Below, one piece after another: positions 13,057 through 48,289 of a stretch of DNA of 64,000 nucleotides. The notes beneath the pieces are model-generated. The model searched no databases, was not told the DNA's origin, and saw only the letters and a list, made by a program, of their open reading frames with translations. The position numbers were made by a program, and so were the translations under genes. The DNA comes from Cloacimonetes bacterium SCGC AAA252-N17. GTDB taxonomy: Bacteria > Cloacimonadota > Cloacimonadia > JGIOTU-2. The stretch covers positions 4,047 to 68,046 of the forward strand of contig ASNI01000004.1 in the NCBI GenBank assembly GCA_000404785.1, given 5' to 3'. How positions within the stretch are numbered: position 1 is the first letter of the stretch; the number at the start of each line of letters is the position of its first letter.

Positions 13057-13067
13057 AAAAAAATAGC

Positions 13068-13104
13068 TATACTCACATATAGCTATTCAAAATTTCTGCG
13101 TCAA
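13068..13104 (-). terminator. Rho-independent terminator of the atp operon
   Basis: On the minus strand the hairpin atagctatatgtgagtatagctat is followed by ttttttt, immediately downstream of the atpC stop codon. Confidence 0.7.
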
Positions 13105-13113
13105 CGAAATCAA

Positions 13114-13533: not shown

Positions 13534-13539
13534 TATTTT

Positions 13540-15918
<2,379 letters not shown>

Positions 15919-15919
<1 letters not shown>

Positions 15920-28142: not shown

Positions 28143-30266
28143 ATGAAAAAGAAAAAACGAGGACTACAAAAGCAAATTCTAGTTCTCTATTTTTTATTCA
28201 CCTTCTCCCTTGTATTCATTCTGATCTTCAGTGTCTGGCAGCTTACCAAGCTCGGTATTTCAGAATTTGAATATGAGAGAATTTCCCGTTTGCTTACAAA
28301 TCTGAAAACACTTCAACGCGATTATACAAACAAACTAAATAATTTTACCTCTGAAATCGCAAATAACCCGGCTCTTGTTGCTTCTGTAGAAAGTCAAGAC
28401 TTTGAATCTATTCATTCAATACTTAATTCCTATGACGACCATTCTCTTGCAAGCTACATGGCTATCTTTGATGCTAAAGGCACTATACTTTATGGCGAAC
28501 AATGGGAACTTGTCGAATCTTTTCTGCCGGAAATGCTCTCCTTAGCAAAACAGAATACAACTCAAGGTTTTTCTGCAAGTTTTTCAAACAAGATATTCTA
28601 CTTCTCTTACACTCCTCTTTATTCTGAAAATGATCAAGAGAAAACATTTTTAGGGCTTTTTATCAATGTAAATCAGATATCCCCTTCTGAAATTGGAGCA
28701 GCTCAGGATCCCCACATATTTCTTTTGCCTTTTTCTGTGCCACTCAATCCAGAGCAGGAGATCCTTAAAAAAATTATTCCCGAACTCGACAAAAAACTTC
28801 CAGCTGTTTTAAAAACTAAAAATCGCGAATCTGTTTTACGCTTGAATGTGGAAACTGCTGTTGGGTTGCTTGTCAATTATAATATATTCCGCGAACCTGC
28901 CTCACTCACTGTTTATATTTATGATCGCGAATTCAATAAATTTTATCGTCAAAGTATAGTCTTCTTCTTCCTTATCCTGGTTGCATCAAGCTTGGTTATT
29001 GTCAGTTTTTTAAGCAACTGGTTCAGCAAAAAAATAATGCAGCCCATAAAACAGGTAAGTGAAAAAATGCAGAGGATCGAGAAAAATCCTCTTGCCATTG
29101 AACATATTGAAGATGAATATGGCGGTGAGTTGAGCGATATGATTTCTGCATTCAGCTCGATGAACAGGTCGATTGTCGAATATAATAAATCTTTGCTCGA
29201 GTATAAAGTCCTTACTGATAATATTGACATCGGAGTGCTGTGGATGGACTCAAAGATGAATATCCTTATTTGTAATCCAAGTGCTATGGGCATTTTTGAG
29301 CTTATTTCTCTCGATGAGATCATCGGCAAGAATCTGTCCGAATTCATTCATCTTGATGAAGATCTATTATCCAAAGCCCATGAAGACAGCGTGACAATTC
29401 CTCAGCTCGAAATTAGTCTTCCCGGCAAAAAGAAGTTTGTAAAATTTGTTATCCTGAATATCAAAGCTGTTGATGATACGGTCGGCTTGCGCATGGTTGC
29501 AACTATAACCGACATAACACAAAAAATTAATGAAAAAAGAGCCCGTGAAACTCTTGAAAAAGCCCGTGAAGCTCTCGAAATGGAAGTCATAAAGAGTAAC
29601 AAATTCTCCGAGATCGGAAGAAGGGTCGAAGGTGTGGTGCACAATATGAACTCTCCGCTTAATTCTATCCTCGGGTATGCACAGCTTGTGAAAAAAGAAT
29701 ATCCTAATAATGACGATGTAGATAAGATTATTGAGGCAGCTAAAAATATTTCACAATCCATAAAAACCTTGTTACGAAAAGTGCAACAAGATAATATATC
29801 TATGATGCGACCAATTGACATTAACCAGCTTATTGAGCAGGAACTCGAACTTTTAAAACACAATCTTTTCTTCAAGCATTATGTTGTGTTAGAAAAAAGT
29901 CTTTTTAAAGATCTTCCAACCGTGAAAGCAGTATATAGCGATATAAGCCAGAGTTTTACTAACCTTGTAAATAATGCCATAGAGGCAATGCGGGATAGTA
30001 AAGAGCGCAATATTTGGGTGCGCACATATCAAACTTCTGACTTTATCGCAATAGAAGTACGCGATAGTGGAGAAGGAATTGAAGAGAGATATCATTCCAC
30101 GATATTTGAACCTTATTTTACATCGAAAAAGGAAAAAGAACAAGGCGGTTTTGGTCTTGGTCTTGCGATCTGTAAAAATGTTGTAGATCGCTATGGCGGT
30201 TATATTACAGTGCGCTCAGAACCGGGTAAAGGAAGCACATTTACAGTATTTCTTCCCTATGAATAA
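28143..30266 (+). CDS. Membrane sensor histidine kinase (PilS-like by context), with two TM helices flanking an extracytoplasmic sensor domain plus PAS, HisKA and HATPase domains
   Basis: TM helix 1 near the N-terminus, and TM helix 2 at about residue 280 (IVFFFLILVASSLVIVSF). PAS domain (ILICNPSAMGIFEL). H-box VHNMNSPLNSILGY. C-terminal G1/G2 boxes (DSGEGIEE…GGFGLGLAICK). Confidence 0.85.
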   Translation: MKKKKRGLQKQILVLYFLFTFSLVFILIFSVWQLTKLGISEFEYERISRLLTNLKTLQRDYTNKLNNFTSEIANNPALVASVESQDFESIHSILNSYDDHSLASYMAIFDAKGTILYGEQWELVESFLPEMLSLAKQNTTQGFSASFSNKIFYFSYTPLYSENDQEKTFLGLFINVNQISPSEIGAAQDPHIFLLPFSVPLNPEQEILKKIIPELDKKLPAVLKTKNRESVLRLNVETAVGLLVNYNIFREPASLTVYIYDREFNKFYRQSIVFFFLILVASSLVIVSFLSNWFSKKIMQPIKQVSEKMQRIEKNPLAIEHIEDEYGGELSDMISAFSSMNRSIVEYNKSLLEYKVLTDNIDIGVLWMDSKMNILICNPSAMGIFELISLDEIIGKNLSEFIHLDEDLLSKAHEDSVTIPQLEISLPGKKKFVKFVILNIKAVDDTVGLRMVATITDITQKINEKRARETLEKAREALEMEVIKSNKFSEIGRRVEGVVHNMNSPLNSILGYAQLVKKEYPNNDDVDKIIEAAKNISQSIKTLLRKVQQDNISMMRPIDINQLIEQELELLKHNLFFKHYVVLEKSLFKDLPTVKAVYSDISQSFTNLVNNAIEAMRDSKERNIWVRTYQTSDFIAIEVRDSGEGIEERYHSTIFEPYFTSKKEKEQGGFGLGLAICKNVVDRYGGYITVRSEPGKGSTFTVFLPYE

Positions 30267-30281
30267 AAGTGAAATAAAACC

Positions 30282-31712
30282 ATGAAAAATGATATAACCC
30301 AGACAGAATTCTTCAAACAAAATGCTAAAATTCTCATTGTAGATGATGAACAGGACACATTGGATATTTTTCGCCGTCATCTTGAGGATGAATACGATAT
30401 TGATACAGCCCGTTCTGCCGAAGAAGCACTTGAAAAGTTAGAGAGTAATACCTATCATATTGCAATGACTGATATGGTGATGCCGGGCACAGACGGTATC
30501 GAGCTTCTCACACATATAAAGAAGCGCTGGCCCCATGTTGCAGTGGTTATGATAAGTGGAAAAGCTACAATAGGAATGGCTGTCGAAGCCATGAAAACCG
30601 GGGCTGAAGAATTTATAGAAAAACCGGTAGAAGATCTCGATCTGCTGAAGATCATCATAAAAAAAATACTCAAAACAAAATGGCAGCATGAAGAAATTAA
30701 GCGACTGAGAAGCATACTTGCACACGAATTTGATAGAACACAGATCACCGGAAACAGTCTTATCATTCAAAAGGTTATGGAAAAAGTAAAAAGAATTGCC
30801 CCACTCGACACTACTGTTCTTATAACCGGCGAAACAGGCGTTGGTAAAGATATATTTGCCGATCTTATATATCTTAATAGTAAAAGAAAAACGCAAAAAT
30901 TTGTTGCGGTCAACTGCGGTAGTCTTCCTGAGAATCTTCTTGAAAGTATGCTTTTTGGTCATAAAAAGGGCTCCTTCACCGACGCGATAAGGGATAAAGT
31001 CGGCTACTTTCAGGAAGCAGACGGGGGTACGCTTTTCCTTGATGAAATAACAGAAACCAACAAAACCTTTCAGGTAAAACTTCTGCGCGTTCTTGAGAAA
31101 GGTGTGGTCAGACCGGTCGGTGGTGATATTGATATTGAAGTTAATGTGCGCATTATCACCTCTACAAATAAGGACATTGAAAAGGAAGTAAAATATGGCA
31201 ATTTCCGTCAGGATCTTTACTACCGCCTTAATGTAATTCACCTTCATATCCCACCTCTTCGTGAAAGGAGGGAGGATATTCCACTCCTCACCAACGTATT
31301 TGTTCGCGAATTTAGAGAGAAATATGATAAGCCAAACCTTGAAATATCAGATACTGTTATGTCTGTCCTTATCTCTCAAGAATGGGAAGGAAATGTTCGG
31401 GAGCTGAAAAATGCAATCGAGCATGCAGTTGCAATGGCTGCTCATAATAAAATTATTCCAGAGGATCTACCTGACCATATCTATCAAACTAGAATTTCTT
31501 CAAAAAATATGTCTGCACAAAATTTTATGCACCTGCCATTTGCTGAAGCAAAAGAAGAGTTTGAAAAATCGTACATCGAGGGATTAATAAAAAACTGTAA
31601 CGGTGATGTTACTAAAGCTGCAAATATTTCGCAGATAAAAAGACAAAATATTTACGATAAATTTAAAAAATATCATATTGATATTAACAGGTATAGAAAA
31701 AATAATAGTTAG
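30282..31712 (+). CDS. Sigma54-dependent response regulator (NtrC/PilR family enhancer-binding protein)
   Basis: REC domain (ILIVDDEQD…DMVMPG), an AAA+ sigma54-interaction domain (GETGVGKD…ESMLFGHKKGSFTDA…) with a GAFTGA-like loop, and a C-terminal HTH. Confidence 0.9.
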   Translation: MKNDITQTEFFKQNAKILIVDDEQDTLDIFRRHLEDEYDIDTARSAEEALEKLESNTYHIAMTDMVMPGTDGIELLTHIKKRWPHVAVVMISGKATIGMAVEAMKTGAEEFIEKPVEDLDLLKIIIKKILKTKWQHEEIKRLRSILAHEFDRTQITGNSLIIQKVMEKVKRIAPLDTTVLITGETGVGKDIFADLIYLNSKRKTQKFVAVNCGSLPENLLESMLFGHKKGSFTDAIRDKVGYFQEADGGTLFLDEITETNKTFQVKLLRVLEKGVVRPVGGDIDIEVNVRIITSTNKDIEKEVKYGNFRQDLYYRLNVIHLHIPPLRERREDIPLLTNVFVREFREKYDKPNLEISDTVMSVLISQEWEGNVRELKNAIEHAVAMAAHNKIIPEDLPDHIYQTRISSKNMSAQNFMHLPFAEAKEEFEKSYIEGLIKNCNGDVTKAANISQIKRQNIYDKFKKYHIDINRYRKNNS

Positions 31713-32402
31713 AGTTGTTGCAATCGTTGCGATTCAGTTACAATGGTGTATAAATACCAAATTACAAATATCAAATATCAAATAAAATTTCAAATTTCAA
31801 ATCAACATTTCTTAGAAGTCAGAAAATCGATTCTTAATATTGTAAAAATACAAGCACAAATTTGAATTGGATACATTGAATATTTGGACATTTTGGTTTT
31901 TTACCCCGTGAGATAAGCCTTTATCTAATTTTGGTTATTATTAATTCATATTTACCCCTGTTAGATAATTATATATAATGTTTTTGAAACAAGCTATAGA
32001 ATATCTATCTAACAGGGTTTATCTAACGGGGTGAATTTTATTTGAAATTAGTAATTCGTCCCCGCGTCTGCAGGGATAGAAATTATAGAATTTATTCTCT
32101 ACGAACATTAGCGTCATAAATATATGACATACATCCCTAATATGTAATTATTTTATGACAGAATATCATCCTAAAAATCTTAATGCATTCCAAACGAAGG
32201 CGTTGGGAATGAGTATAAAATAGTTTATTCCCGTTCTGGAGAACGGGAATCCAGATGGCTATATTTAGAGTGCAAAATGTGGAGTACTTCTCTCCTGAGA
32301 AGGTTATAATAAACCTTTGTATTATTTTCAAACAGGTTTACTTAAAAAAATAAAATTGATCTTGACAGAAAAAAAAATTTTTAAAAAAGTCAAATAAAAA
32401 TT

Positions 32403-32419
32403 TGGCATATAATTTGCAT
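32403..32419 (+). promoter_or_regulatory. Sigma54 (RpoN) -24/-12 promoter upstream of the pilin-like gene
   Basis: TGGCAT-N5-TTGCAT has exactly the consensus spacing (GG at 32404-05, GC at 32416-17). It lies about 80 nt upstream of the start codon and downstream of the gene for a sigma54-dependent activator. Confidence 0.8.
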
Positions 32420-32500
32420 TATATATTTATATTAATAAAAGATGTGAAAATTCCCCAATTCCCGTTTTTTACGGGAAAAAAATAATGTTAGGAGGATAAC

Positions 32501-32944
32501 ATGGGAATGCAACAAATACTGCTCATTGTATTGAGCGTAATTATCGTAGGTGCAGCTGTCGCTGTTGGTATTACGATGTTCAGTACCCAGGCTGTGAACG
32601 CAAACCGCTCGGCAGTTCTTATGGACCTGAACACCTTTGGTGCAGCAGCTATAGCATATTATAAGACACCTACTGACCAGGGCGGTGGCGGCCACTCTTT
32701 TGAGGCTTCTTGCGACTCAGTTGGATACTACCTCGCTAATAACTATAGTACGACTGGCAAAACAATTACCAATGATAATGGTGATGTCTATACGTTATCA
32801 ATTGACGGTGATAATCTAAAAATAGTTGGTGTGGGAACTGAAAAAGGAAGAAGCACGGTGGTTGGCTGTGGCGACAGAGTTGGTGGCACAATGACTATTG
32901 ACCCTGAGGCATCTGACCCGCTTGTTCTAACCCTTACTAATTGA
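32501..32944 (+). CDS. Small pilin-like protein (candidate major filament subunit). It has an N-terminal roughly 25-residue hydrophobic helix but no canonical prepilin leader.
   Basis: N-terminus MGMQQILLIVLSVIIVGAAVAVGITMF, followed by a small Gly/Thr-rich globular part. The RBS is AGGAGG at 32490-95. It is driven by the sigma54 promoter and followed by a strong terminator. It sits at the head of the pilC-pilB cluster. Confidence 0.55.
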   Translation: MGMQQILLIVLSVIIVGAAVAVGITMFSTQAVNANRSAVLMDLNTFGAAAIAYYKTPTDQGGGGHSFEASCDSVGYYLANNYSTTGKTITNDNGDVYTLSIDGDNLKIVGVGTEKGRSTVVGCGDRVGGTMTIDPEASDPLVLTLTN

Positions 32945-32986
32945 CAAGTAAGACAGCAGATAGTAAAAATCGCTGTTTGTAAAATT

Positions 32987-33029
32987 ATATGGGAGGTTGG
33001 AATTGATGCCTGCCTCCCATATTTTTCTT
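32987..33029 (+). terminator. Rho-independent terminator downstream of the pilin-like gene
   Basis: A 10-bp stem (atatgggagg … cctcccatat) followed by TTTTTCTT. Confidence 0.8.
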
Positions 33030-33091
33030 ATTTACAGATTCCATGACAGAATGGACCGTAACAACCATAGGTTAATAAAAAGTAAGTAGCT

Positions 33092-34444
33092 ATGTTAAAA
33101 GAATATCGCTATCAAGGTATATCACTTAGTGGTAAAACCATACAAGGTATAGTATTAGCACATAACAATTCAAAATCTAAAGAGTTAATTAAAGGGCTTG
33201 CTTCCAAACATAGATTACGAATCAATTCCATACTTCCTAAGAAAAAATTTATTTATGTAGTAAAGCTGCCAAATGGGAAGAAGATAAGAGGTAGGCAGGC
33301 AGCATTTACCAAGCAGGAAGTAGCAGATGCCCTTGCAAAGATTGGATATCATAATGCAAAAATCCAACCCGTTCTTTTTGATATAAAACGCAAGCCATCT
33401 TCTGCAGATATAATGATGTTTGTTAATCTTAGTTCATTCCTGTTAAAAGAAAAGATGGCGTATGACAAGATTCTTCGTATGTTGGCAGACGAAGAATCAA
33501 ATCCTACATTAAAGGAAACCCTAAAGAAGATTGAAAGCCAGTTAAAATCTGGCAAAGAAGGTTCAGAAGTTTTTGCACGCTTTTCTGATATTTTTGGGAA
33601 ATTCCCTGCTTATATGCTTGGCTTGGCAACCAAAAGTGGTAATATGGCAGAAGTCTACGATGCTACTGCAAAGTTCATGGAACGTGATCAGGAATATAAA
33701 AAAAGTATGAAACAAGCATTGATTGCTCCAGCTCTCACAGTATTGGCTACAATAGCAGCATGCGTATGGTATATTGTTTCTATTTTCCCGGCAACTGCAA
33801 ATCTATTTATCAAATTTAATATAGAAGTTCCCCCTATGACAGCAGCAACCTTAAGAATGAGTAATTATTTAGGGGCTAATTGGTGGCGGATGCTTCTTCT
33901 TATTATTATACCTGTAATGATAATTTTGCGATGGTGGAAAACTCCAAAAGGGATGGTATGGAGAGATAGGTTTTTAATTAAGTTACCAATTGTAGGACAT
34001 CTTTTGCATAAATCAAGCATTGAGATATTTTTTAGAGTTTTTTCTGCTATCTATGCAGGAGCGGCTGATAATATAGCGACATTACAAGCTTCTGCAGAAG
34101 CTTGCAGGAATGCTTACATGGAAAAAGGGGTTAAGGAGATAACAATTCCACTTATGCTGAAAGAAGGTATGTCATTAGTGCCAGCCCTTGCAACTGCCGA
34201 TGTTTTTAACAGAACCACATTAAGCAGGTTGAGAACAGGAGTAGAGACAGGGAATGTTCTGCAAGCTGCCCAGCAGATTGCCCTATTCTATGAAAAAGAA
34301 ACAACATACAAGATAAAGAATATAATTCAATATGTTCAGACTATAGTTGGTGCTTTTATAGCACTGGCAATTACCATCTTAACCATAGTTTCCGCAGAAG
34401 TTGCCTTTGTATCACCTCCCATACCGGGAATAAGTGGAATGTAA
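33092..34444 (+). CDS. pilC: Type IV pilus / type II secretion platform protein (PilC/GspF family)
   Basis: Two T2SS-F repeats, each followed by TM segments (…PAYMLGLATKSGNMAEVYD…, …LQASAEACRNAYMEKG…). Confidence 0.85.
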   Translation: MLKEYRYQGISLSGKTIQGIVLAHNNSKSKELIKGLASKHRLRINSILPKKKFIYVVKLPNGKKIRGRQAAFTKQEVADALAKIGYHNAKIQPVLFDIKRKPSSADIMMFVNLSSFLLKEKMAYDKILRMLADEESNPTLKETLKKIESQLKSGKEGSEVFARFSDIFGKFPAYMLGLATKSGNMAEVYDATAKFMERDQEYKKSMKQALIAPALTVLATIAACVWYIVSIFPATANLFIKFNIEVPPMTAATLRMSNYLGANWWRMLLLIIIPVMIILRWWKTPKGMVWRDRFLIKLPIVGHLLHKSSIEIFFRVFSAIYAGAADNIATLQASAEACRNAYMEKGVKEITIPLMLKEGMSLVPALATADVFNRTTLSRLRTGVETGNVLQAAQQIALFYEKETTYKIKNIIQYVQTIVGAFIALAITILTIVSAEVAFVSPPIPGISGM

Positions 34445-34567
34445 ATTAAGTCATTTGTAATTTGTAATTTATCCTCGTTCCCAATCCCCAATTGAATTGG
34501 GGATTGGGAACGAAGTGAATGGGTTACCAAACTGGATTTGGTAACCAGAAATGTAAAAAAGAAAAAT

Positions 34568-36352
34568 ATGTTAGGAAAATCAAGATTAGGTCAAGTTCTC
34601 ATTGAACGAGGAATAGTTGATAAAGAAACGCTTAATAAAGCATTTCTAATTCAAGCTGATGAGGATCCGGAAAATCCAAGAAGGTTAGAAGAGATTTTAG
34701 TTTCTGACCTCAAAGTAGACCATGATGCTATCTTTGGCTTATTAGCAGACCTTTATGCCTTCCGAACTATAAATATTGACCCCGAACAGGTAGATACGAA
34801 GCAGATAAAAAATACAAAAGAGATACTATCAAAATTTCCCGAAGATTTTAAAAGAGAACTAATATATAAAAAGGTTTTACCATATCAAATATCTTATGGT
34901 CGCAGGGATAAACTCCTGGTCTTATCTGCAAATCCTACTGAAAAAATTGTGGAAAAAATCCCTTTACTCACTGAGTTCAAAAAATATGAAGTAGTTTATT
35001 GTCGACTAAGGACTTTAGAGGAACTTATTGACCTGATAGCTCCGCAACAAAATGAGTTTCTAGAACTTTTAGAAGAGGCAAGCGAACAGATAGAAGAGGT
35101 AAGGGAGCCAGGACGCATAACAGGAATTGATGAATATGCATTAGATGACGAAATCAACAAAAGTCTTTTAGTAAATCTTTATGAAGGCTGCCTTATAGAA
35201 GCGGTACGAAAAGATGCGAGTGATATCCATATCATTCCATTTCAAAGGTCCAATGTAGATATCTATTTTAGGATTGATGGCAAGCTCCATCTCTGGCATC
35301 GTCAGGAAAATACCGAACCAGAAGCTATGGCAGCTGTAGTAAAAGACCGCACCACAGGGATTGATAGATTTGAAAGGGATACAGCACAGGATGGCTTTGC
35401 ACAACGAATCGTAGATGACCACCTGATTCGCTTCCGTGTCTCTGTACTGCCAATGATATCTCAAGAATACGAAAGAAGATTTGAGAGCATTGCAATCAGG
35501 GTGGTAGATGACAGGAAAGTTATCACAGATTTAAAAGAATTAGGATTTCAAAAACAAGCAGAAAAGGATTTTCTTAAAGCAATAAATACATCCAAGGGGA
35601 TTGTAATAGTTACAGGACCAACAGGTAGTGGAAAGAGTACAACCTTAATGGCTGCACTTTATCATGTGTTAGACCCCTCAAAAAATGTACTTACATGCGA
35701 AGACCCTGTAGAATATGTGATTAGAGGGGCAAGGCAGTTAAAAATTGGACATAAGCTTAGCTTTGAAAACGCAGTTCGTTCTATTCTAAGACATGACCCT
35801 GATATCGTTATGGTCGGTGAAATCAGAGATAAAATTACCGCTGATGTTGCGGTTAAACTTGCTAACACAGGTCATCTGACATTTTCTACACTTCATACCA
35901 ATGATGCACCAAGTGCCATATCAAGACTCTATAAAATGGGAGTAGAACCATTCCTCCTGGCTTATGCTATAAATATTATAGTAGCACAAAGACTCGTAAG
36001 AAAACTATGTCCACACTGCAAGAAACCATTATCTAAAGAAAAGTATCAAGCAGCTCTTGATTTAGGATTAACAGAAGAGGACTTAAAATCTGGTAAAATC
36101 TTTGAAGCTGGTAAAGGATGTAAAAAGTGCACAGAAGGATATAGGGGAAGAATCAATATCTGTGAAGCATTATATTTTAGCCCTGAGATAAGAAAATCTA
36201 TTGTGAAAGCTGGAACTGAGATTTATGAGGAAAAGATAAGACAAATTGCAGAAAGCCAGGGAATGTTATCACTTCGCCAATCTGGATTAGAAAGAATTAG
36301 AGAAGGGCTCACTACTATATCAGAAGTGGCTTATGCTACCTCAGAGGATTAA
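34568..36352 (+). CDS. pilB: Type IV pilus assembly / secretion ATPase (PilB/GspE family) with an N-terminal MshEN-like domain
   Basis: Walker A motif GPTGSGKSTT, the His box TLHTNDAPSAISRL, and a tetracysteine motif CPHC…CKKC. The N-terminus carries RLGQVLIERGIVDKETLNKAFLIQ (an MshEN RLGxxLxxxG motif). The ORF track starts at a TTG at 34538, but the ATG at 34568 is preferred. Confidence 0.9.
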   Translation: MLGKSRLGQVLIERGIVDKETLNKAFLIQADEDPENPRRLEEILVSDLKVDHDAIFGLLADLYAFRTINIDPEQVDTKQIKNTKEILSKFPEDFKRELIYKKVLPYQISYGRRDKLLVLSANPTEKIVEKIPLLTEFKKYEVVYCRLRTLEELIDLIAPQQNEFLELLEEASEQIEEVREPGRITGIDEYALDDEINKSLLVNLYEGCLIEAVRKDASDIHIIPFQRSNVDIYFRIDGKLHLWHRQENTEPEAMAAVVKDRTTGIDRFERDTAQDGFAQRIVDDHLIRFRVSVLPMISQEYERRFESIAIRVVDDRKVITDLKELGFQKQAEKDFLKAINTSKGIVIVTGPTGSGKSTTLMAALYHVLDPSKNVLTCEDPVEYVIRGARQLKIGHKLSFENAVRSILRHDPDIVMVGEIRDKITADVAVKLANTGHLTFSTLHTNDAPSAISRLYKMGVEPFLLAYAINIIVAQRLVRKLCPHCKKPLSKEKYQAALDLGLTEEDLKSGKIFEAGKGCKKCTEGYRGRINICEALYFSPEIRKSIVKAGTEIYEEKIRQIAESQGMLSLRQSGLERIREGLTTISEVAYATSED

Positions 36353-36355
36353 ATA

Positions 36356-36766
36356 ATGAATACAGGTCAGATGCTTGCTCTCATTTTTGCGATTGCACTT
36401 TTTGCCACTATTGTGATGACTGTAAACTACTCTCTGCTCAGTCAATCCGAACTGGTTTATAGGGGAATGTATATAACCCAGGGACAAAACATATCGGAGA
36501 AATACTTTGATAAAATAGAAGCGGAAGCTATAGTATCAAATCCACCAATAGTTCCATTTGATTTCATTGGAGCTAGTTATCCTAATACAACTGTTTCTCT
36601 GGGTAGTGTTAATTATGAAGTATATATCTCTACTCAATATACAGATTCATTAGGAACACCAATGGGATTTCCCACAGATTTTCAACGAGTAGATATTAAG
36701 ATATATTGTGTTGGATTACTCGACACAATAAGGTTCAACAGATTGTTTGGTAAGGTAGATTTATAG
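36356..36766 (+). CDS. Small pilin-like protein (candidate minor filament subunit) lacking a class III leader
   Basis: N-terminus MNTGQMLALIFAIALFATIVMTV. 136 aa. Translationally coupled 3 bp after pilB. Confidence 0.45.
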   Translation: MNTGQMLALIFAIALFATIVMTVNYSLLSQSELVYRGMYITQGQNISEKYFDKIEAEAIVSNPPIVPFDFIGASYPNTTVSLGSVNYEVYISTQYTDSLGTPMGFPTDFQRVDIKIYCVGLLDTIRFNRLFGKVDL

Positions 36767-36773
36767 GTGAGAG

Positions 36774-37346: not shown

Positions 37347-37635
37347 TAAAGCAATTAACAATCAATCAATTAAAAGATTGACATAAATTTGGTAATTTTT
37401 ATCTATGTAGAGTTATTAGGCTAGGTTCGAGCTTATCCCGAACCCACGAAAATTAAAAGATGAACAGGATAAATTTGTTGGTGAATAATGTTTAAGAACC
37501 CAAAAGTATATTTAGTGTTTGTCCGTAAAATAAAAACCTTGGTATCCCAATATGTCGGGATGCAATGGTTGATTTGTTCATTATTTATTCCCTATATATC
37601 AGGGATAAATCTGATACAGCGAATAGGAGGATAAA

Positions 37636-38538: not shown

Positions 38539-38644
38539 TAAAAAATTTTATTCCCTTATAAGCTTATTGAATTCGTAATACGGGTTGGTGCAGAATGTTG
38601 TGATAACCTATAATATTAATAATAGTATATTAAAGAGGAAAAAA

Positions 38645-39556
38645 ATGGATAAATTACAATTTACTGAAACAGAAAAAAGTATGTACAATTGGTGGTCAAA
38701 AATCCGCTGGTTTATGGTAATTATCCTTTTTGCCATAGGTGTTTTGCGGGTTCAGCAAACTCCACAGACCTATCCGATTATTATCTTTGTTATTGTATTT
38801 TTGGGAATATGTATCTTAAATCTTCTTTTTCATTTGCAAATTATTAAGACCACTAACATTATTGGAGCGTTTCAAATCGTTCTGGATATTGTATTTGCTA
38901 CCATGGTTGTTCATTTGACTGGTGGGCTTGAAAGTTCTTTTGTATGGATTTACCTAATAGGAGTGATTACTGCCAGTTTGGCATTAACAAAATCGGGCGG
39001 CTTTATCGCAGCCTCGATAGGTGGTATGTGTCTATTGGTGTTGATTCTTTTTTATAATTTTAAATGGCTGATTCCAGTTAATGGTTCGGCTTTTGATGTT
39101 GATATATCGTCACAGACCATCTTTCTGATTTCCTATGTAGGTCTTTTTACTACCATAGCCTTTATTGCGAATTTTATTAGTGATATGGTAAGAAACCTTT
39201 CATGGGAAGTTCGGACTAATGAGGAGAAATTTAGCCAGCAAGAAAATACACTATTGGAAATGCAAAAAGAAATCGTTGAAAATAAGAAAGACATTGGAAA
39301 GTATAAAGAAGTTGTTAAAACAGCCGCTTCACTCGCTGGCATAGACCATGACATAAATAATCCCCTTAGTGTTATTTCTTTGTCATTAAGCAGGGTAAAA
39401 AAAGCTGCTGCGGAATATGAGGACGAAAAACTTGCTAAGACTGGCAATCAAATAACAGAAGCTATCAATAGAATAAATAGTATACTAACAAGATTGCAAG
39501 AGTTAAAAAAGTTAGAATTAATTAAAGAGGAAAGAAAAAAGCAAAAACAGGATTAA
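38645..39556 (+). CDS. Six-TM membrane sensor with a HisKA phosphoacceptor domain but no catalytic HATPase domain
   Basis: Six hydrophobic helices and then IDHDINNPLSVISLSL (an H-box). The protein ends in a coiled coil with no N/G1/G2 boxes. The start is taken at MDKLQF, which has an RBS. Confidence 0.6.
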   Translation: MDKLQFTETEKSMYNWWSKIRWFMVIILFAIGVLRVQQTPQTYPIIIFVIVFLGICILNLLFHLQIIKTTNIIGAFQIVLDIVFATMVVHLTGGLESSFVWIYLIGVITASLALTKSGGFIAASIGGMCLLVLILFYNFKWLIPVNGSAFDVDISSQTIFLISYVGLFTTIAFIANFISDMVRNLSWEVRTNEEKFSQQENTLLEMQKEIVENKKDIGKYKEVVKTAASLAGIDHDINNPLSVISLSLSRVKKAAAEYEDEKLAKTGNQITEAINRINSILTRLQELKKLELIKEERKKQKQD

Positions 39557-39560
39557 TACT

Positions 39561-40415
39561 ATGAAAAAAAATATTTTAATCGTTGATGATGAACAAAATA
39601 TAAGAGAACTTTGTAAAGAGTTTCTTGAGGAAGAGGGATATAAGGTTTCGCTTGCTGTTGATGGTCAAGACGCTTTAGATAAAATGGAATATGATGATTT
39701 TGATCTATTTCTTGTTGATATGGCTATGCCCCGTATGGGTGGATTTGAATTAATGAAGATGATTAAGAAGAAACAACCCTTTGCGGTGATAATTATATTG
39801 ACCGGCTTTCCCAGTATTGAGGATGCGGTCAGGACGATCCGTGCTGGTGCATTTCACTACATAACCAAGCCTACTAATGCAGAGGAACTTCTTGAGGTTG
39901 TTAAAAAAGGATTAGAATATTCAGAAGATTTATATGGTCCTCTTCAAAAAGTCTTTGAACCTTTGTCAGAAACCGTCCACAAAAGAGGCCCAATTATATT
40001 GCATGGATTTTCTCCTGAAGATAAAACAGATTTTCTATCCTTGGGCAGCCTGTGTGAATATGATGTTGGCGTAAACATTCCTATAGGTGATAAAAAATCT
40101 GGTTCAATTATTTTAGTTGATCGCGGTGAAGTCTCAGTTTGGCTTAATAATACAATTGTAGATTATCTCCAAAAATGGGATACATATGGTGAGGAACGCC
40201 TTATTTTAGCTGAATCTTTAATTACTAAACTTCGTGCTGAAACTGCTGTTAGGGTTAGATATTTTGACCGTAAAAAGATGTTAGATTTCTTTGCATACAA
40301 AGGTGAAAAATTGATGAAAAGATTTATGATTAATCTTATAAATTGTACATTTTCCAAATGGCGTAAATCCATTCAAAGAATTGTTATGCTGAAACTTGTT
40401 ACTGGAGAAAAGTGA
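39561..40415 (+). CDS. Response regulator whose receiver domain is fused to a C-terminal domain of unknown function (possibly PilZ-like)
   Basis: REC domain ILIVDDEQN…DLFLVDMAMP…ITKP. The C-terminal roughly 150 aa show no clear motif. Confidence 0.7.
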   Translation: MKKNILIVDDEQNIRELCKEFLEEEGYKVSLAVDGQDALDKMEYDDFDLFLVDMAMPRMGGFELMKMIKKKQPFAVIIILTGFPSIEDAVRTIRAGAFHYITKPTNAEELLEVVKKGLEYSEDLYGPLQKVFEPLSETVHKRGPIILHGFSPEDKTDFLSLGSLCEYDVGVNIPIGDKKSGSIILVDRGEVSVWLNNTIVDYLQKWDTYGEERLILAESLITKLRAETAVRVRYFDRKKMLDFFAYKGEKLMKRFMINLINCTFSKWRKSIQRIVMLKLVTGEK

Positions 40416-40418
40416 AGA

Positions 40419-40506
40419 ATATCGTATATCGTCAATCGGTTGGGCAACTCGAAACGGTTGACGGATACCGGAAAACGGCACGTCTGCCGATTGACGCAAG
40501 ACGATT
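40419..40506. repeat. Direct repeat copy 1 flanking the four-helix-bundle gene; GC-rich, with an internal 10-bp inverted repeat (cgtcaatcgg / ccgattgacg)
   Basis: About 94% identical to 40946..41032. Confidence 0.85.
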
Positions 40507-40538
40507 CGACCTACGCAACTGAATAACGAAAGGAAGAT

Positions 40539-40946
40539 ATGGAAAAGAAGCCAATAAGAAGTTTTCACGACTTGGATGTTTACCAAAACTCTTATGAAGC
40601 GATGCGTTCTGTGTTTAACGAAATATTACCAAAACTGCCTGCAGAAGAAAAATATGATTTGGTAGATCAATTACGGAGATCAAGCAAGGCAATTCCTCGC
40701 CTTATTGCAGAAGGGCATTCAAAAAGGCATCAGAATCCCGATATATCGGGACAAAAATATATTGATGATGCAATGGGAGAATCTAATGAAACGATAGTAT
40801 CTCTCTCTCAGACAAAGGACTTATATGCCAAACATATAGATATTGAAGTATGCAAAAGGTTAATGGATACTTATGATAAAATTAGCAGGCAGTTATATAA
40901 TTTAGCATTAGTGTGGACAAAATTTGGTGAAAAAGATAAATTGTGA
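40539..40946 (+). CDS. Four-helix-bundle protein (TIGR02436; the '23S rRNA intervening sequence protein' family)
   Basis: Has the diagnostic N-terminus FHDLDVYQNSYEAMRSVFNEILPKLPAEEKYDLVDQLRRSSKAIPRLIAEG. Confidence 0.8.
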   Translation: MEKKPIRSFHDLDVYQNSYEAMRSVFNEILPKLPAEEKYDLVDQLRRSSKAIPRLIAEGHSKRHQNPDISGQKYIDDAMGESNETIVSLSQTKDLYAKHIDIEVCKRLMDTYDKISRQLYNLALVWTKFGEKDKL

Positions 40947-41032
40947 TATCGTATATCGTCAATTGGTTGGGCAACTCGAAACGGTTGACGGATACCGGAA
41001 AACGACACGTCTGGCGATTTACGCAAGACGAT
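40946..41032. repeat. Direct repeat copy 2, slightly degenerate
   Basis: The sequence atatcgtatatcgtcaattggttgggcaactcgaaacggttgacggataccggaaaacgacacgtctggcgatttacgcaagacgatt. Confidence 0.85.
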
Positions 41033-41088
41033 TTCCCGATTTATCGGGACAACCGTCCACCGTATAACGAAATATTTATAGGAGAACA

Positions 41089-42306
41089 ATGAGCCTATCT
41101 TTTACCCCTGAAATGTTAGTAGGATTACCAGAATATTTAACTGGCACAAGTAGATTCCAGAACATTAACAAAATTATTACTTATAATGCAACCTGGAGAA
41201 AAGAAGCTTACGACAACCTAAAAAAATTACTCAAGCATATGCGAGAAATAAACGCCTCTGATATAGATTTAGGCGGACCTGGCGCAAAGAGACAAATCTG
41301 GTATAGAGTCTATGGGAAAAAATCTCCACATCAGGATATGCCTTCATACACTAATGATGAAGTTACCGCTATATTATTAAGTGTATTGTCCGATGAACAG
41401 AAAATAACACTTTTCAAAAACAAAAATGTAGACCTCTCTGTAGGAATGGTATTAGAAAAGGGGGAAGAACCCAGCCGGTTCCGTAGCGATATCTATTATG
41501 AAAGTAATGTTTTAGTAGCAAACTTCAGACGCATCAACCAAGAACTATTTACAATACAATCTTTAAACTTTCCCGAATCAATTATCAAAAGATTAGACCT
41601 CCAATATGAAAAATCTGGTCTAATTTTAGTAACAGGAATCACAGGCTCAGGAAAAAGTTGCACATTAGACTCTATTATAGATATGAATAATCACAACAAT
41701 AACTCCCATATTGTAATTATTGGAAATCCAATTGAATATATCCACCAATCAGATAAATGTATTATTAGACATAGGGAAGTTGGTGAAGATGTATTAAATT
41801 TTAGAGAAGGAACAATACAAGCATTAAGACAGGACCCTGATATAATTGTTGTTGGAGAAATGCGAGACCCTGAAACAATTGCTACAGTTCTTGAAGCCAC
41901 TGATAGCGGTCATAAGTGTTTTACTACCTTACATACAAGTTCAGCAGTTGATAGTATGCATAGAATTATTGCTGAATTTCCTCCAAACGAGCAAGATAGA
42001 ATAAGGATAAGACTGGCAGATACCTTGAAAGTGATTATCTCTCAAAAATTAGTTCCAAATAAGCAAGGCAAGCTAACATTAGCAAAAGAGATTCTTTCTG
42101 TAGATGCATCTGTGTCCGCTGCAATAAGAAATAAAAATATCAACGAAATATATCAGATGATTACTGAAGGTAAAAGAAAAGGTATGATAACCCTTGAACA
42201 AGACCTATTTAATCTATGTAAAACCAATATAATAACAAAAGAAACAGCTATGAACTTTTCAAATAACAGAAAGAGAATGGAGCAGTTGTTAACTTACTCA
42301 AAATAG
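41089..42306 (+). CDS. pilT: Type IV pilus retraction ATPase (PilT/PilU family) with an N-terminal extension of about 60 aa
   Basis: Walker A motif GITGSGKSCT, the motif VGEMRDPETI, and the His box TLHTSSAVDSMHRIIAEFP. Confidence 0.85.
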   Translation: MSLSFTPEMLVGLPEYLTGTSRFQNINKIITYNATWRKEAYDNLKKLLKHMREINASDIDLGGPGAKRQIWYRVYGKKSPHQDMPSYTNDEVTAILLSVLSDEQKITLFKNKNVDLSVGMVLEKGEEPSRFRSDIYYESNVLVANFRRINQELFTIQSLNFPESIIKRLDLQYEKSGLILVTGITGSGKSCTLDSIIDMNNHNNNSHIVIIGNPIEYIHQSDKCIIRHREVGEDVLNFREGTIQALRQDPDIIVVGEMRDPETIATVLEATDSGHKCFTTLHTSSAVDSMHRIIAEFPPNEQDRIRIRLADTLKVIISQKLVPNKQGKLTLAKEILSVDASVSAAIRNKNINEIYQMITEGKRKGMITLEQDLFNLCKTNIITKETAMNFSNNRKRMEQLLTYSK

Positions 42307-42317
42307 ATTCCTAAATA

Positions 42318-44399: not shown

Positions 44400-44401
44400 T
44401 T

Positions 44402-45274
44402 ATGCCATATGTAATTAGAAATACAATCGTTTTAGCAGTTTTACTGTTAATTGTTTTATTTGTAAGTATTATCGGAAATGCAAATTCGGTAAGAAAATTT
44501 GAAGAGGCAAAGAAATCATACAATGAGAAAGTAAAAATGTTAGAAACCCTCAAGAGAACCGATCCTGATATAAAAGATGAAGCTCGAATTATAAAAGAGC
44601 TTGAGAATATGCAAAAAAAAGCACTTGAAAGCAATAAAGTTATACTGAAAGATGATAATCCGACTCTTTCATATCAATATTTGATTGGTATTTGTGATAA
44701 TTTTTGCCCTGATGTTAATTTTAACTTCCGAACTGCAGGTTCAGGCCAAATGGAAGACATTTCTTTCAATACATATAACATCTCTGGAGATGCTAATATA
44801 GAATCTCTTCATTTTTTTATTTATCAAATTGAATATCAGCCCCCACTTTATACAGTTGAATCTATCAAGCTTTCTGAACAATCGGTAGCTATGGCTGATA
44901 CAGTAAATTTTATGCTTGTTTTACGAGCATATTTTAATGACAATGGAACTAAATTAAAAGATATACCAATGAGAAGTTTTAGATTTACAAATCTAACATA
45001 TAACCCATTTTATTCCAGAATTCACGAGCCTATATTAAATATGGAAGAGGAAAAATATCTTAATGTGTATACAGCATCAATGATAGGTTTAACTCCGAAT
45101 AGAGTATTTTTGCGCGATGAAAATGGAAAAATTAATACTCTCACTCCGGGATACAAAGTTGCTTATGGCTATCTGGATCATATCAACTGGAATAAACAAG
45201 CTGCTGTATTTAAGATAAATCGTATCGGAATCTCAGAGAAAAAAATTATATATATCGAGGGTGATACACAATGA
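44402..45274 (+). CDS. PilO/PilN-like inner-membrane pilus alignment protein
   Basis: N-terminal TM helix (IVLAVLLLIVLFVSIIG), then a coiled coil and a periplasmic domain. Its position between the pilM/N gene and the secretin gene supports the call. Confidence 0.5.
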   Translation: MPYVIRNTIVLAVLLLIVLFVSIIGNANSVRKFEEAKKSYNEKVKMLETLKRTDPDIKDEARIIKELENMQKKALESNKVILKDDNPTLSYQYLIGICDNFCPDVNFNFRTAGSGQMEDISFNTYNISGDANIESLHFFIYQIEYQPPLYTVESIKLSEQSVAMADTVNFMLVLRAYFNDNGTKLKDIPMRSFRFTNLTYNPFYSRIHEPILNMEEEKYLNVYTASMIGLTPNRVFLRDENGKINTLTPGYKVAYGYLDHINWNKQAAVFKINRIGISEKKIIYIEGDTQ

Positions 45275-46482
45275 AAAAATTATTGCTTTTTTTTATTTTA
45301 ATATTTTTGTCTAGCACGCTTTTCTGTCAATGGAAAGAAGAAAAAATCATTTCGCCAGAAGAGTTAATTACAATCTCCCGGGATACAAATTTTCCTGATG
45401 CAATTATAGCACTTGAAACAATGTCTCAAAGATTTGAAGGACGTAAAATAGTTAATATGAGCAGTTTTACCGCACCTATTGGAATTCCAATTAAACAGCT
45501 ATATTGGAAAGATGCTTTAGAGCTTATTATAAACTTTAATAATCTCATTCTTGAAGAACTGCCAGGAATTTATCTAATAAGAGATCGGGTTATAGAAGAA
45601 AAACCACCAGAAGAAGTAATGCTAGAAGAGAAGGAAATTACTCCTGATACTGAGCAGATACGAATCAGTTCAATATTTTTTATTGCTGATAAGTCAGTAT
45701 TAAACAGTATTGGCATAGATTGGTCAACACTTTACAACGGCAAAGTTGTAGCAGCAATAAATTTTTCAGGTGGGAGCCAAGTAATAAGTGATATATTTAA
45801 TGCAAGTGGAACAACAACATTGGAATCAGGTGACATTACAATTGATGTAAATACACTCTTACGAATAATAGAAGCCAACCAAAAAGGAACCATTATCGCC
45901 CGACCAAGTATAGTTGTTATATCAGGCAGAAAAGGATACATACAAGTCGGTAAAGATTTCTCTGTAAAAACCAGAGATGAAGCAGGTAATATTACAGATA
46001 AATTTTTTACAACTGGGGTGATTTTAGAGGCAACCCCCACAATCGTTAAGGATAGTCTTAAGACAGCTATACATCTGGTTGCCAAAGTAGAGAGGAGTTC
46101 TGCTGTGCCAGGAGAAATTAGCACCATTATAAATATGAGTCAATCCACAACTGAAGTGCTTTTATTTAATGGAGAGGAAACGGTTATTGGCGGACTTTAT
46201 AGTACAGAAGACACTAAAGTGAGAACCGGAGTACCGCTTTTAAAAGACCTTCCCTGGTGGGTTTTTGGTCTTCGCTATCTTTTTGGATATAATAAACACG
46301 ATAGAGCAGAGAAAGAAATGATAATAATCTTAAAAGCAGAAATTCTTGAACCTATTGAACAGAGGATGGAAGAAGATATTTCTACCAAAGAAAAAATCCA
46401 GAAGATGCGAGATGCAAAAGCATATATTGATACACTTTTTAACGAAAATAAAAGGGATAAAAATGATAAAAACAAGGAATAA
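45271..46482 (+). CDS. pilQ: Secretin (PilQ/GspD family), a short form
   Basis: Signal peptide / lipoprotein-like N-terminus, then a secretin N-domain (AIIALETMSQ…LYWKDALELII) and the C-terminal secretin motif GVPLLKDLPWWVFGLRYLFG…KEMIIILKAEIL. Confidence 0.8.
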   Translation: MKKLLLFFILIFLSSTLFCQWKEEKIISPEELITISRDTNFPDAIIALETMSQRFEGRKIVNMSSFTAPIGIPIKQLYWKDALELIINFNNLILEELPGIYLIRDRVIEEKPPEEVMLEEKEITPDTEQIRISSIFFIADKSVLNSIGIDWSTLYNGKVVAAINFSGGSQVISDIFNASGTTTLESGDITIDVNTLLRIIEANQKGTIIARPSIVVISGRKGYIQVGKDFSVKTRDEAGNITDKFFTTGVILEATPTIVKDSLKTAIHLVAKVERSSAVPGEISTIINMSQSTTEVLLFNGEETVIGGLYSTEDTKVRTGVPLLKDLPWWVFGLRYLFGYNKHDRAEKEMIIILKAEILEPIEQRMEEDISTKEKIQKMRDAKAYIDTLFNENKRDKNDKNKE

Positions 46483-48289
46483 AAACCCTATTAAGTTTTT
46501 CTGCTTTGCTATACTTGGTATTATATCTTTTTATTTGATAAGTTGTGGCGTAAAGCTAACTTCTCCAGGTAGCCATGATGCTCCTACAGATTTGGAGATA
46601 AAAAAAATAGAGGAAGGTAGAGTTGAACTAAGCTGGAAATATTCTATTTCTACTGATGATACTCTACAATTTGTTATAGCAAAAAGAATTGGTAAAGGCA
46701 CCTGGATCGAGACGTATTCAATTGTAGTTGAATCCCCTTTTAACTTCGTTGATAATATCCTTACAAATGATAGCCTTGCATATGCCTATAAGGTTAAAGT
46801 CCATAATATAGAGACTGATATAACTTCGCAATTCTCTGAAGTTGTTGCCTATCTCTCTCCACAAACTGCCCCAACGGATCTGAATATTGTGCAAACTTCC
46901 CAGGAGAAATTGAAAGTAAGCTGGGAGGACCATTGCGTAGGCGAAGAAGGCTATTATATTGATAAAAAGATAGATAATGGAAGTTGGACTGATAAGTATA
47001 AAATTCTCACTGCCAATACAACCTCTTTGAGTGACTCTACCAATCTTTTTGAAACAGTTTATTATCGTGTTTGGGTGTTTGTTGGGGAATCAAAAAAAGG
47101 TGGGGTTGAGAATTCTATAGTTACCACTTTGCCAGCTCCCAGCAATTTAATCTTGCAAAAACCAGATCCATGTAAAATCAGCCTTTCTTGGAACGACAAT
47201 AGCGATGGGGAAGAAGGATTTTATATTGATAAAAAAATTGGTGAATTAGATTGGATTACGGAGTATGATTCTGTAGCAACTAATACTAATTCTTTTATAG
47301 ATGATATTACGCAACCTTGTGGAACTTTTTACTATCGCGTTAGAGCCTATGCCTATGACTCTACTTATTGTAACACATTTTACTCTGGATATAGTAATGA
47401 AGTCCATATAAATATTAGATTAGAAGAGATTGGTTCTGTGAATACCTCAGGAGATGCCACAGAAGTATTTGTCGCAAACTGGAAAGCCTTTGTGGCTGAT
47501 CAATATAATGGACTTGTGCTTATCGATTGTTCAAATCCAAGTGCACCTAATGAAATCAGCAGTATAAGCTTTAATGATAGAACACTATCAGTTTTTGTTG
47601 ACAATAATTTTGCTTATATAACTAATCACAATGGTGGGTTAAATATAGTCGATGTCAACTCGCTTGTAAAAATAGACAGTTGTGCAACTGCTGGGGTTCC
47701 AAATGATGTATTTGTTTCTGGTGATTTTGCCTATATTGCAATTGGTGAAGATGGAGTTTCAATATTAACTGAAACTGAACCTCTAAGTTTTATGGGAAAT
47801 TGCGGGACTGGTGGAGATGCAAGAAAAGTCTTTGCTTATGAAGACCCCTCTCCTTTTGTTTTTGTAGCTAATGGTCTTGACGGCGGTATTGCTATATTAG
47901 ATGTTTCCGAGCCATCAAATCCCTTATTTGTATCTGACCTTCCAATTGCTGGGCTTGCCCAAGATGTTTATGCACTTGGTAATTATGCCTATCTAGCAAA
48001 TGGTGAGAAAGGATTAGAAATTATTGATATTTCTGATGCAAATTCTCCATTGCCTGTTGCCAATTGCCCAACAGATGGTTTTGCCTATAGTGTCTATGCC
48101 CGAGATAATTATGTCTATTTAGCAGACAAAGAGGAGGGACTGTTCGTAATTGATGTTTCAGATCCTTTGGCTCCTTACATCTTAGGAACATTTGAGATGT
48201 CGACCGAGCCAGTTTCAATTTATCTATATGGCAGTTACGCTTTTCTTGCTGATAATGAAGGACTAAAAATTGTTCAGGTTGCTCCATAA
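46459..48289 (+). CDS. Lipoprotein with four fibronectin-III-like repeats followed by LVIVD beta-propeller repeats
   Basis: Lipobox LISCG. Fn3-like repeats begin with PTDLEI / PTDLNI / PSNLIL motifs. The C-terminal half has LVLIDCSNP…GLNIVDV…GLEIIDIS…GLFVIDVS repeats. Confidence 0.6.

Follow-up and report, generated by a model that had tools for sequence, protein, structure and literature searches.

We analysed a 64,000-nucleotide stretch of chromosomal DNA, here called the window, from a Cloacimonadota (WWE1) bacterium, Cloacimonetes bacterium SCGC AAA252-N17. Positions 28143–48289 of the window, and arguably 26433–50487, are occupied by one co-oriented locus of type IV pilus genes, with every large open reading frame within 28143–48289 on the + strand. 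The locus is flanked by an ATP synthase operon, parAB, rsmG, mnmG, mnmE and yidC. An initial annotation had described a contiguous, co-oriented 20-kb type IV filament locus, and both the open reading frame map and hidden Markov model (HMM) scans of the Pfam and NCBIfam libraries bear this out. The features are collected in Table 1. We conclude that this is the type IV pilus cluster conserved across the uncultured phylum Cloacimonadota, in which the filament subunits are encoded without a class III leader.

Table 1. Features of the pilus locus and its surroundings, in window coordinates.
Feature	Position	Strand	Evidence
GAF histidine kinase and single-domain receiver	26433..28074	+	receiver 27676-28074, Response_reg (Pfam)
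Membrane sensor histidine kinase, 707 aa	28143..30266	+	HAMP-PAS-HisKA-HATPase (Pfam)
NtrC-family sigma54 activator	30282..31712	+	REC-Sigma54_activat (E 1.7e-65)-HTH_8
Sigma54 -24/-12 element TGGCATataatTTGCA	32403..32418	+	exact TGGCAY-N5-TTGCW
Predicted major filament subunit, leaderless pilin-fold protein, 147 aa, starts MGMQQILLIVLSVIIVG	32501..32944	+	
Intrinsic terminator after pilin gene	32987..33034	+	11-bp GC-rich stem and U-run
PilC-type platform protein	33092..34444	+	T2SSF in two stretches (Pfam); GspF/PilC models 1e-36 to 1e-39
PilB-type extension ATPase	34538..36352	+	T2SSE E 2e-98; TIGR02538 E 6e-121, below cutoff
Candidate minor subunit, 136 aa	36356..36766	+	N-terminus M-x-x-(G)-Q-M-L-L-V-L-L
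Candidate minor subunit, 190 aa	36774..37346	+	N-terminus MSSLLDxIGA, acidic residue at position 6
Candidate minor/tip subunit, 300 aa	37636..38538	+	N-terminus MGK(LLI) and hydrophobic helix
PilS-type six-transmembrane (6TM) and HisKA protein, 323 aa	38585..39556	+	6TM_PilS E 1.4e-9; HisKA E 1.5e-7
Receiver protein with C-terminal cNMP-binding-like domain	39561..40415	+	Response_reg E 6e-31; cNMP_binding E 0.008
23S_rRNA_IVP insertion	40419..41033	+	IVP four-helix-bundle gene 40539-40946, Pfam E 1.9e-17
PilT retraction ATPase	41089..42306	+	TIGR01420, 321.4 bits vs cutoff 319.1
PilM-PilN-TPR fusion, 693 aa	42318..44399	+	TPR by HMM; other domains by AlphaFold2 model
Bitopic 290-aa protein in PilO/PilP position	44402..45274	+	transmembrane helix, coiled coil, two globular parts
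Short secretin, 403 aa	45271..46482	+	Secretin E 1.2e-27; PilQ best NCBIfam, 1.8e-24, below cutoff
Fn3 and LVIVD beta-propeller lipoprotein	46463..48289	+	LVIVD E 1.7e-42; lipobox LISC read from sequence
Hybrid PAS histidine kinase-receiver	48910..50487	+	Pfam

A one-genome-per-species scan with an alignment of the pilin returned 118 relatives, of which the best 80 were compared (individual loci carry L numbers below). These 80 are metagenome-assembled genomes of Cloacimonadota, except for four named only 'uncultured bacterium' and two labelled Neomarinimicrobiota. By tblastn of the window proteins, the recurring gene order begins with an optional hybrid histidine kinase, the sensor kinase and the NtrC-family activator, followed after a gap by one to six pilin genes, pilC, pilB and the genes for the 136- and 190-residue proteins. 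It continues with none to two copies of the 300-residue gene, then the 6TM/HisKA protein, the receiver, PilT, the PilMN-TPR fusion, the 290-residue protein and the secretin. This order is conserved in about 80 Cloacimonadota species. The initial annotation had called the architecture unusual, with several components fused or shortened by comparison with textbook systems. The PilM-PilN-TPR fusion and the short secretin confirm the departure from the textbook, but the arrangement is not an oddity of one genome; it is the standard layout of the phylum.

The core of a type IVa-like machine is complete, as had been proposed: a PilB, a PilT, a PilC, a PilM/PilN module and a secretin are all present. 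HMM searches support the initial assignments of PilC (T2SSF), PilB (T2SSE, with type IV-A PilB as top model), PilT (TIGR01420, above cutoff) and the secretin (Secretin domain). For PilB, the best NCBIfam model is TIGR02538, type IV-A PilB, though its score lies below the equivalog cutoff; public gene calls start the protein at ATG 34568. The PilB N-terminus RLGQVLIERGIVDKETLNKAFLIQ (34568–34760) contains an MshEN-like cyclic di-GMP (c-di-GMP) motif (NF053729, E 6.6e-5, below cutoff). Secretins elsewhere measure 376–389 residues in L086 and L088 and 516 residues in L087, where the protein (13009–14559) carries a C-terminal OmpA peptidoglycan-binding domain.

The 693-residue protein had been described as a fusion of PilM, PilN and tetratricopeptide repeats (TPR). 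HMM models recover only its TPR part, with no match to PilM or PilN, and a profile search of the PDB likewise returned TPR proteins only. The four-part architecture is seen in an AlphaFold2 model (37 homologues, pLDDT 81), which comprises a cytoplasmic actin-like domain (residues 7–345), an 85-residue transmembrane and coiled-coil helix (359–444), a periplasmic ferredoxin-like alpha-beta domain (449–524) and a YbgF/CpoB-like TPR domain (571–692). PilM beats every other structure as a match to the actin-like domain, and the fusion stands as first described. This single protein supplies the PilM and PilN alignment components of type IVa machinery.

The 290-residue protein stays between the PilMN gene and the secretin gene across loci. 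It has one weak match, to GspM (E 0.004, NCBIfam), and none in Pfam or in PDB profile searches. Its position, its topology and the GspM match make it a candidate PilO-like protein. A PilP-like C-terminal domain, guessed from a sequence pattern, was discarded for want of Pfam or PDB profile support. No recognisable PilP, PilF/Tgl or TsaP is encoded in the pilus locus. The Fn3/LVIVD lipoprotein of the initial annotation is retained by its Pfam match with a revised start, which is most likely at 46463 (MIKTRNK...LISC lipobox) rather than 46346. It is 40% identical over its full length to the product of the gene after the secretin in L086; such a gene also follows the secretin in L087, and not in L088, which places it in at least two other lineages.

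The 147-residue protein is encoded by a gene that always comes first before pilC-pilB. Identical copies of the protein occur in GCA_000493925.1, GCA_000397825.1 and GCA_000397905.1, and all homologues bearing organism names are from Cloacimonadota. It has no match in Pfam, including N_methyl, or in NCBIfam. The structure model (30 homologues, pLDDT 84.9) places a helix of residues 3–55 on a five-stranded sheet, which is the pilin arrangement of a hydrophobic alpha1 helix of about 50 residues on a beta-sheet head. GspK is among its best structural matches; a Foldseek search with the model gave no match. Among 1.84 billion cluster representatives, 1806 matched the family; of the 150 matches listed, nearly all align from residue 1. 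Residues 4–17 and most of 19–27 are invariant, with the whole proteins 44–76% identical, and an invariant N-terminal stretch of this kind is typical of a pilin alpha1 helix.

Several observations locate the start of this protein. An in-frame TAG lies three codons upstream of ATG 32501, and an AGGAGG ribosome-binding site lies 5 nt before it. Among 107 homologous gene copies, 83 start with MGTQQILLIVLS and six with MGMQQ. Conservation of Gly2 in the major subunit is about 98%. After removal of duplicate loci, 104 copies were re-analysed: the first codon is ATG in 99 and GTG, TTG, ATT or ATA in the other five, a Shine–Dalgarno-like site precedes 100, and 90 have no possible in-frame upstream start at all. 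Hemmed in by a ribosome-binding site and, in most copies, an in-frame stop upstream, the start codon leaves no room for a basic leader. The family profile aligns LLIV 7–10 with LLIV 6–9 of mature Geobacter PilA (weak, E 0.17), which would put Met1 at position -1 and Ile6 at the position of Glu5. The reading frame thus appears to open at the residue aligned with canonical prepilin position -1. The major subunit has neither the short basic class III leader ending in Gly(-1) nor Glu5, whose place is taken by Ile, or by Gln one register off. The earlier statement that the subunits lack this leader is borne out by the start-codon context across gene copies, and the 107 copies in relatives include no canonical pilin.

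In some relatives the subunit gene is repeated. Tandem arrays of up to six pilin genes have identical N-termini and variable heads, and some genomes have orphan pilin genes far from any assembly genes. Such array or orphan genes occur in L033 (8965–13680), L012, L019, L036, L037, L071 and L074; the neighbours of the orphan pilin-only locus in L012 are unrelated housekeeping genes.

The window contains no prepilin peptidase, in agreement with the initial annotation. The two multi-transmembrane open reading frames outside the locus that resemble candidates are DUF3147 and DUF401 proteins, and a motif-plus-hydrophobicity heuristic found no A24 catalytic motif in multi-transmembrane open reading frames of the window and 88 loci (1.3 Mb). 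A motif scan for canonical prepilins (K/R...G followed by FTLIE) likewise found none in the window and 85 loci (1.23 Mb). The literature regards two features, the class III signal peptide and the prepilin peptidase, as defining and universal for type IV filaments of bacteria and archaea. A survey of 46 Cloacimonadota genomes lists a major pilin, both ATPases, the platform and alignment proteins; the peptidase is unlisted. That survey found its pilin by manual BLAST only, which fits a non-canonical family. A cluster look-up for a link between the 147-residue family and the published 'pilin' WP_133201237.1 found no accession, and literature searches for leaderless or Met-aminopeptidase-processed pilins returned nothing relevant.

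Three further families with an N-terminal helix are likewise encoded without a class III signal peptide. The N-terminal 16 residues of the 136-residue protein resemble those of the major subunit (hhalign E 0.0014); its gene position is conserved across loci, and it has no HMM match in Pfam or NCBIfam. The 190-residue family is confined to Cloacimonadota and has no Pfam domain. Residue 6 is D or E in 45 of its 46 homologues, which is position +5 if Met1 is taken as -1; of the four families it alone keeps an acidic residue there. In the 300-residue family M1-G2-K3 is conserved and the C-terminal part is glycine-rich and beta-helix-like, with weak matches to Bactofilin, MinC_C and DUF7305 and no others. 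Many loci have one or two copies of this gene and several have none; in L087 (4271–6040) it is replaced by a 589-residue DUF7305 protein whose first 88 residues match. PDB profile searches with the 136-, 190- and 300-residue families gave no match. Comparison of all four families by hhalign shows weak N-terminal similarity, with a best probability of 57% (136- versus 300-residue). A conserved Gly ahead of the helix is shared by the major subunit and the 300-residue family but not by the 136- and 190-residue families, so no cleavage motif is common to all four. We regard the three proteins as candidate pilin-like subunits on the basis of their N-terminal helix and position.

Expression of the major subunit appears to be under sigma54 control. 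The sensor kinase and the NtrC-type activator named in the initial annotation carry the expected Pfam domains (HAMP, PAS, HisKA and HATPase in one; Response_reg, Sigma54_activat and HTH_8 in the other). The kinase is of a generic kind, with AtoS as best NCBIfam match below cutoff, and is the presumed partner of the activator, whose gene adjoins its own across loci. The activator loop reads GSFTDA, a variant seen in the sequence, and its best NCBIfam matches are AtoC and NtrX. The element TGGCATataatTTGCA, the sole exact match to TGGCAY-N5-TTGCW in the window, lies 82 nt before the pilin ATG. Elements with at least 10 of 11 consensus bases were found upstream of the pilin genes in 48 of 79 loci, compared with 0 of 2020 shuffles, and mostly lie 50–90 nt upstream. 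A perfect sigma54 promoter had been claimed before the small pilin-like gene. The promoter stands; it is near-perfect rather than perfect, since it is one base off the textbook TGGCAC. The strong terminator reported after the gene is supported by its folding (hairpin 32987–33022 plus U-run, -22.2 kcal/mol, z -4.4). The major-subunit gene is thus predicted to be monocistronic, sigma54-driven and terminator-bounded. Its own sigma54 promoter, a strong terminator and tandem arrays with variable heads are typical of a major pilin gene.

The sequence around this promoter has other features. Between the promoter and the ribosome-binding site, the 5' untranslated region of the pilin gene contains a 7-bp GC-rich hairpin (UUCCCGU-UUUUU-ACGGGAA, 32458–32478). 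The spacer between activator and pilin is an insertion hot spot. In L005 (887–7600) it holds an array of DUF559 genes and an IS21 element, and in L023 (3083–9671) a minus-strand island, which might modify the pilin, with genes for two GT87 glycosyltransferases, an FAD oxidoreductase, GtrA and a membrane protein of the sulfatase family. The window spacer (31712–32400) contains three TTATCTAACNGGG motifs that match the L005 DUF559 genes. We considered these repeats (31904–32031) as activator-binding sites and rejected them; the same motif lies inside each DUF559 gene of the L005 array, so the window copies are insertion remnants. A pair of NTP_transf_2 genes sits between the pilin gene and pilC in L004 (4937–5393).

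A second signalling pair is encoded between the subunit genes and pilT. The HisKA-only sensor of the initial annotation is here the 6TM_PilS and HisKA protein, with a called start at 38645, an intact H-box (HDINNPL) and no Pfam match to HATPase_c. The same architecture, at 288–312 residues, occurs in L086–L088, and the gene is present in about 40 loci. The accompanying receiver, previously named as a REC-domain regulator and confirmed by Response_reg, is kept between the PilS-like gene and pilT across loci, and cNMP_binding is also annotated in its homologues in L086 and L088. The regulatory module had been described as PilS/PilR-like. This is upheld for function, by the sigma54 activator and the sigma54 promoter before the pilin gene, but not for orthology. 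With AtoC and NtrX as its best matches, the activator is not shown to be an orthologue of PilR, and the six-transmembrane domain, which in PilS belongs to a complete HisKA-HATPase kinase, is found on a separate, conserved protein of 300–323 residues; the complete kinase of the locus has another kind of sensor part. Two further kinases border the locus. GAF and HATPase_c of the kinase at 26433 are taken from the gene-call annotation of the identical locus L001; the kinase and its receiver also lie upstream of the kinase-NtrC pair in L009 and L026, a linkage confined to the closest lineages. The hybrid kinase lies downstream in the window and directly upstream of the kinase-NtrC pair in L011, L014–L016, L035, L039 and L045.

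Taken together, these data make it fairly probable that the locus encodes a Cloacimonadota version of the retractile type IVa pilus, whose subunits are born mature and need no peptidase step. Since the subunits carry no leader, the prepilin-peptidase step may be unnecessary. The subunits would insert into the inner membrane N-in and already 'mature', with at most the initiator Met trimmed and no prepilin peptidase or N-methylation step. PilB, possibly c-di-GMP-gated, and PilC would extrude the filament through the secretin, and PilT would retract it. The PilM-PilN-TPR fusion and the 290-residue bitopic protein would form the alignment complex, in which the periplasmic YbgF-like TPR domain may provide the connection to the secretin or cell wall that PilP or a pilotin would otherwise make. 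PilS of Pseudomonas aeruginosa reportedly senses PilA via its membrane domain. By analogy, the 6TM/HisKA protein and the adjacent receiver may monitor how much of the invariant pilin N-terminus is present in the membrane and feed back on the kinase-activator pair, through either the catalytic kinase or the activator.

Some points weigh against this model. A prepilin peptidase may be encoded elsewhere in the genome, as many bacteria, and all MSH loci, encode theirs away from the pilus locus; our scan for A24 was a motif-plus-hydrophobicity heuristic rather than an HMM search, and the loci it covered are partial genomes. Gly2, conserved as it is, could serve as the -1 Gly for cleavage after a two-residue leader. 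The 136-, 190- and 300-residue minor subunits and the PilO-like protein are candidates, the role of the TPR domain is deduced from its position, and that of the PilS-like protein from P. aeruginosa PilS and its position. Pilus production by Cloacimonadota cells is predicted here from genes.

The leading alternative is that the pilus is of the ordinary type IVa kind and that a gene elsewhere supplies a peptidase, which cleaves after Gly2, removes MG and methylates Thr3. The near-invariance of Gly2 in both the major subunit and the 300-residue family speaks for such a minimal leader, as does the frequent separation of prepilin peptidases, shared between systems, from pilus loci. We nevertheless think it unlikely, because the 136- and 190-residue families have no conserved Gly before their hydrophobic helix, the two-residue 'leader' contains no basic residue, and N_methyl gives no signal in Pfam. 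We know of no leader as short as MG. The register is also informative: with Thr3 as +1, none of the four families has an acidic +5 residue, whereas with Met1 as -1 nearly every member of the 190-residue family has one. The motif scan of 1.3 Mb around 88 loci, which returned no A24-like open reading frame, points the same way.

Two further alternatives concern what the machine builds and from what. It might assemble a short periplasmic pseudopilus for DNA uptake or for secretion of the type II secretion system (T2SS) kind, given that the PilM-PilN fusion resembles GspL in its fold, that GspF and GspE models score nearly as high as those for PilC and PilB, that GspK ranks with the best structural matches to the subunit and that the secretin is short. 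We judge this improbable: PilT scores above its family cutoff and is conserved inside the locus, type IV-A PilB is the top-scoring model for the extension ATPase, the actin-like domain is closest to PilM among structures, no GspC match was found in the locus, and sigma54 control with multicopy, variable-head subunit genes is typical of major pilins. It is more improbable still, and in our view hardly credible, that the 147-residue family is not a filament subunit at all but, for example, a membrane-anchored regulator or inhibitor, with a canonical pilin encoded elsewhere as the real substrate. The family does fall outside Pfam and NCBIfam, and earlier papers name a Cloacimonadota 'pilin', WP_133201237.1. 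Against this stand its extreme N-terminal conservation, the constant place of its gene before pilC-pilB and the lack of any canonical prepilin in the 1.23 Mb scanned around the loci; the need for manual BLAST to find the published pilin also suits a non-canonical family.

We compared the proposed leaderless type IVa pilus with known systems. With the type IVa pili of P. aeruginosa and Myxococcus xanthus it has in common PilB, PilC, PilT, a PilM-fold protein and a secretin, a sigma54 promoter before the major subunit with an adjoining NtrC-family activator, a PilS-type six-transmembrane domain, and a subunit with an N-terminal helix of about 53 residues and a beta-sheet head. Unlike those systems, the Cloacimonadota locus has no pilD and no recognisable PilP, PilF/Tgl or TsaP, its subunits lack the class III leader and its major subunit Glu5, and its secretin is roughly half as large as PilQ. 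A single polypeptide joins PilM, PilN and a YbgF-like TPR domain, and the PilS-type domain sits on a HisKA-only protein, the catalytic kinase being a separate one. In type II secretion systems, GspL also combines an actin-like domain, one transmembrane helix and a ferredoxin-like domain in one polypeptide; the 693-residue protein differs in matching PilM structures best and in carrying the extra C-terminal TPR domain. The presence of PilT in the locus and the absence of GspC and GspL matches further set it apart from a T2SS. MSH pili share the lack of a peptidase gene in the locus, but their pilins retain a canonical leader and rely on the peptidase of another system, whereas the Cloacimonadota subunits offer nothing to cleave. 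Identity to PilA4 and PilA5 of Thermus thermophilus and to other solved pilins and pseudopilins is just 15–17%; Thermus pilins are made as prepilins. NCBIfam matches to the pilus-like Akkermansia Amuc_1098–1102 cluster are weak, with E 2e-4 for the PilMN fusion against Amuc_1101 and E 3e-8 for the secretin against Amuc_1098; they fall far below cutoffs and leave orthology unsupported. The Cloacimonadota system is a new variant of type IVa pili that lacks two hallmarks of pilins, the leader and Glu5. It had been put forward as an uncharacterised variant, and the literature we searched, which contains generic mentions only of type IV pili in Cloacimonadota, agrees.

A wider claim, which we advance tentatively and with more doubt than confidence, is that the whole phylum builds retractile type IV pili from subunits that never pass a prepilin peptidase. 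If this were true, no A24 peptidase would be encoded in the genomes, ordinary Met processing would generate the subunit N-terminus or formyl-Met would remain there, the conserved contact of Glu5 with the N-terminal amine in all other type IV filaments would give way to another core packing, and a single minor subunit would retain an acidic residue at +5. The type IV filament superfamily would then lose one of its four 'universal' components. A leaderless machine across a phylum would be a natural experiment on what the leader, N-methylation and Glu5 contribute to insertion, extraction and filament packing. Because the subunits are unmatched in Pfam and NCBIfam, pipelines that need a recognisable pilin would probably overlook the system or under-call it. 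In anaerobic digesters Cloacimonadota are abundant syntrophs, and a part in direct interspecies electron transfer has been proposed for their type IV pili; knowing the real subunit and its sigma54 control makes that idea testable.

The window also contains a lineage-specific insertion within the locus. The initial annotation's inserted four-helix-bundle cassette corresponds to the IVP gene, which lies between two 88-nt direct repeats (95% identical) and is absent from the pilus loci of all other Cloacimonadota genomes examined. We take the gene as a lineage-specific insertion because of these repeats and its restriction to the window's own lineage; the unit looks like a small mobile or duplicated cassette. 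Each repeat holds a 19-nt inverted repeat, and only two copies occur in the window. Downstream of the lipoprotein gene, 48348–48855 holds two short open reading frames in different frames, which encode about 50 residues of a beta-helix start and a type IX secretion system C-terminal sorting domain. Full-length genes of 476–1129 residues occupy this position in L086 and L087, and the two frames are probably a deleted, frameshifted remnant.

Outside the pilus locus, the sole Rfam match in the window is a bacterial large signal recognition particle RNA (60767–61030, +, 168.6 bits); no RNA family was matched within the locus. Two further observations concern the ATP synthase operon. In its alpha subunit (15919–17637, -, 572 residues), the match to the nucleotide-binding domain is interrupted by an insertion of about 55 residues, rich in lysine and glutamate, which divides it into two parts. 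The c subunit (18982–19713, -, 243 residues) contains three ATP-synt_C repeats; judged by eye, the ion-binding Glu of repeats 1 and 3 is replaced by Gln in the middle hairpin. The protein would then be a triplicated c subunit that has lost one ion-binding site.

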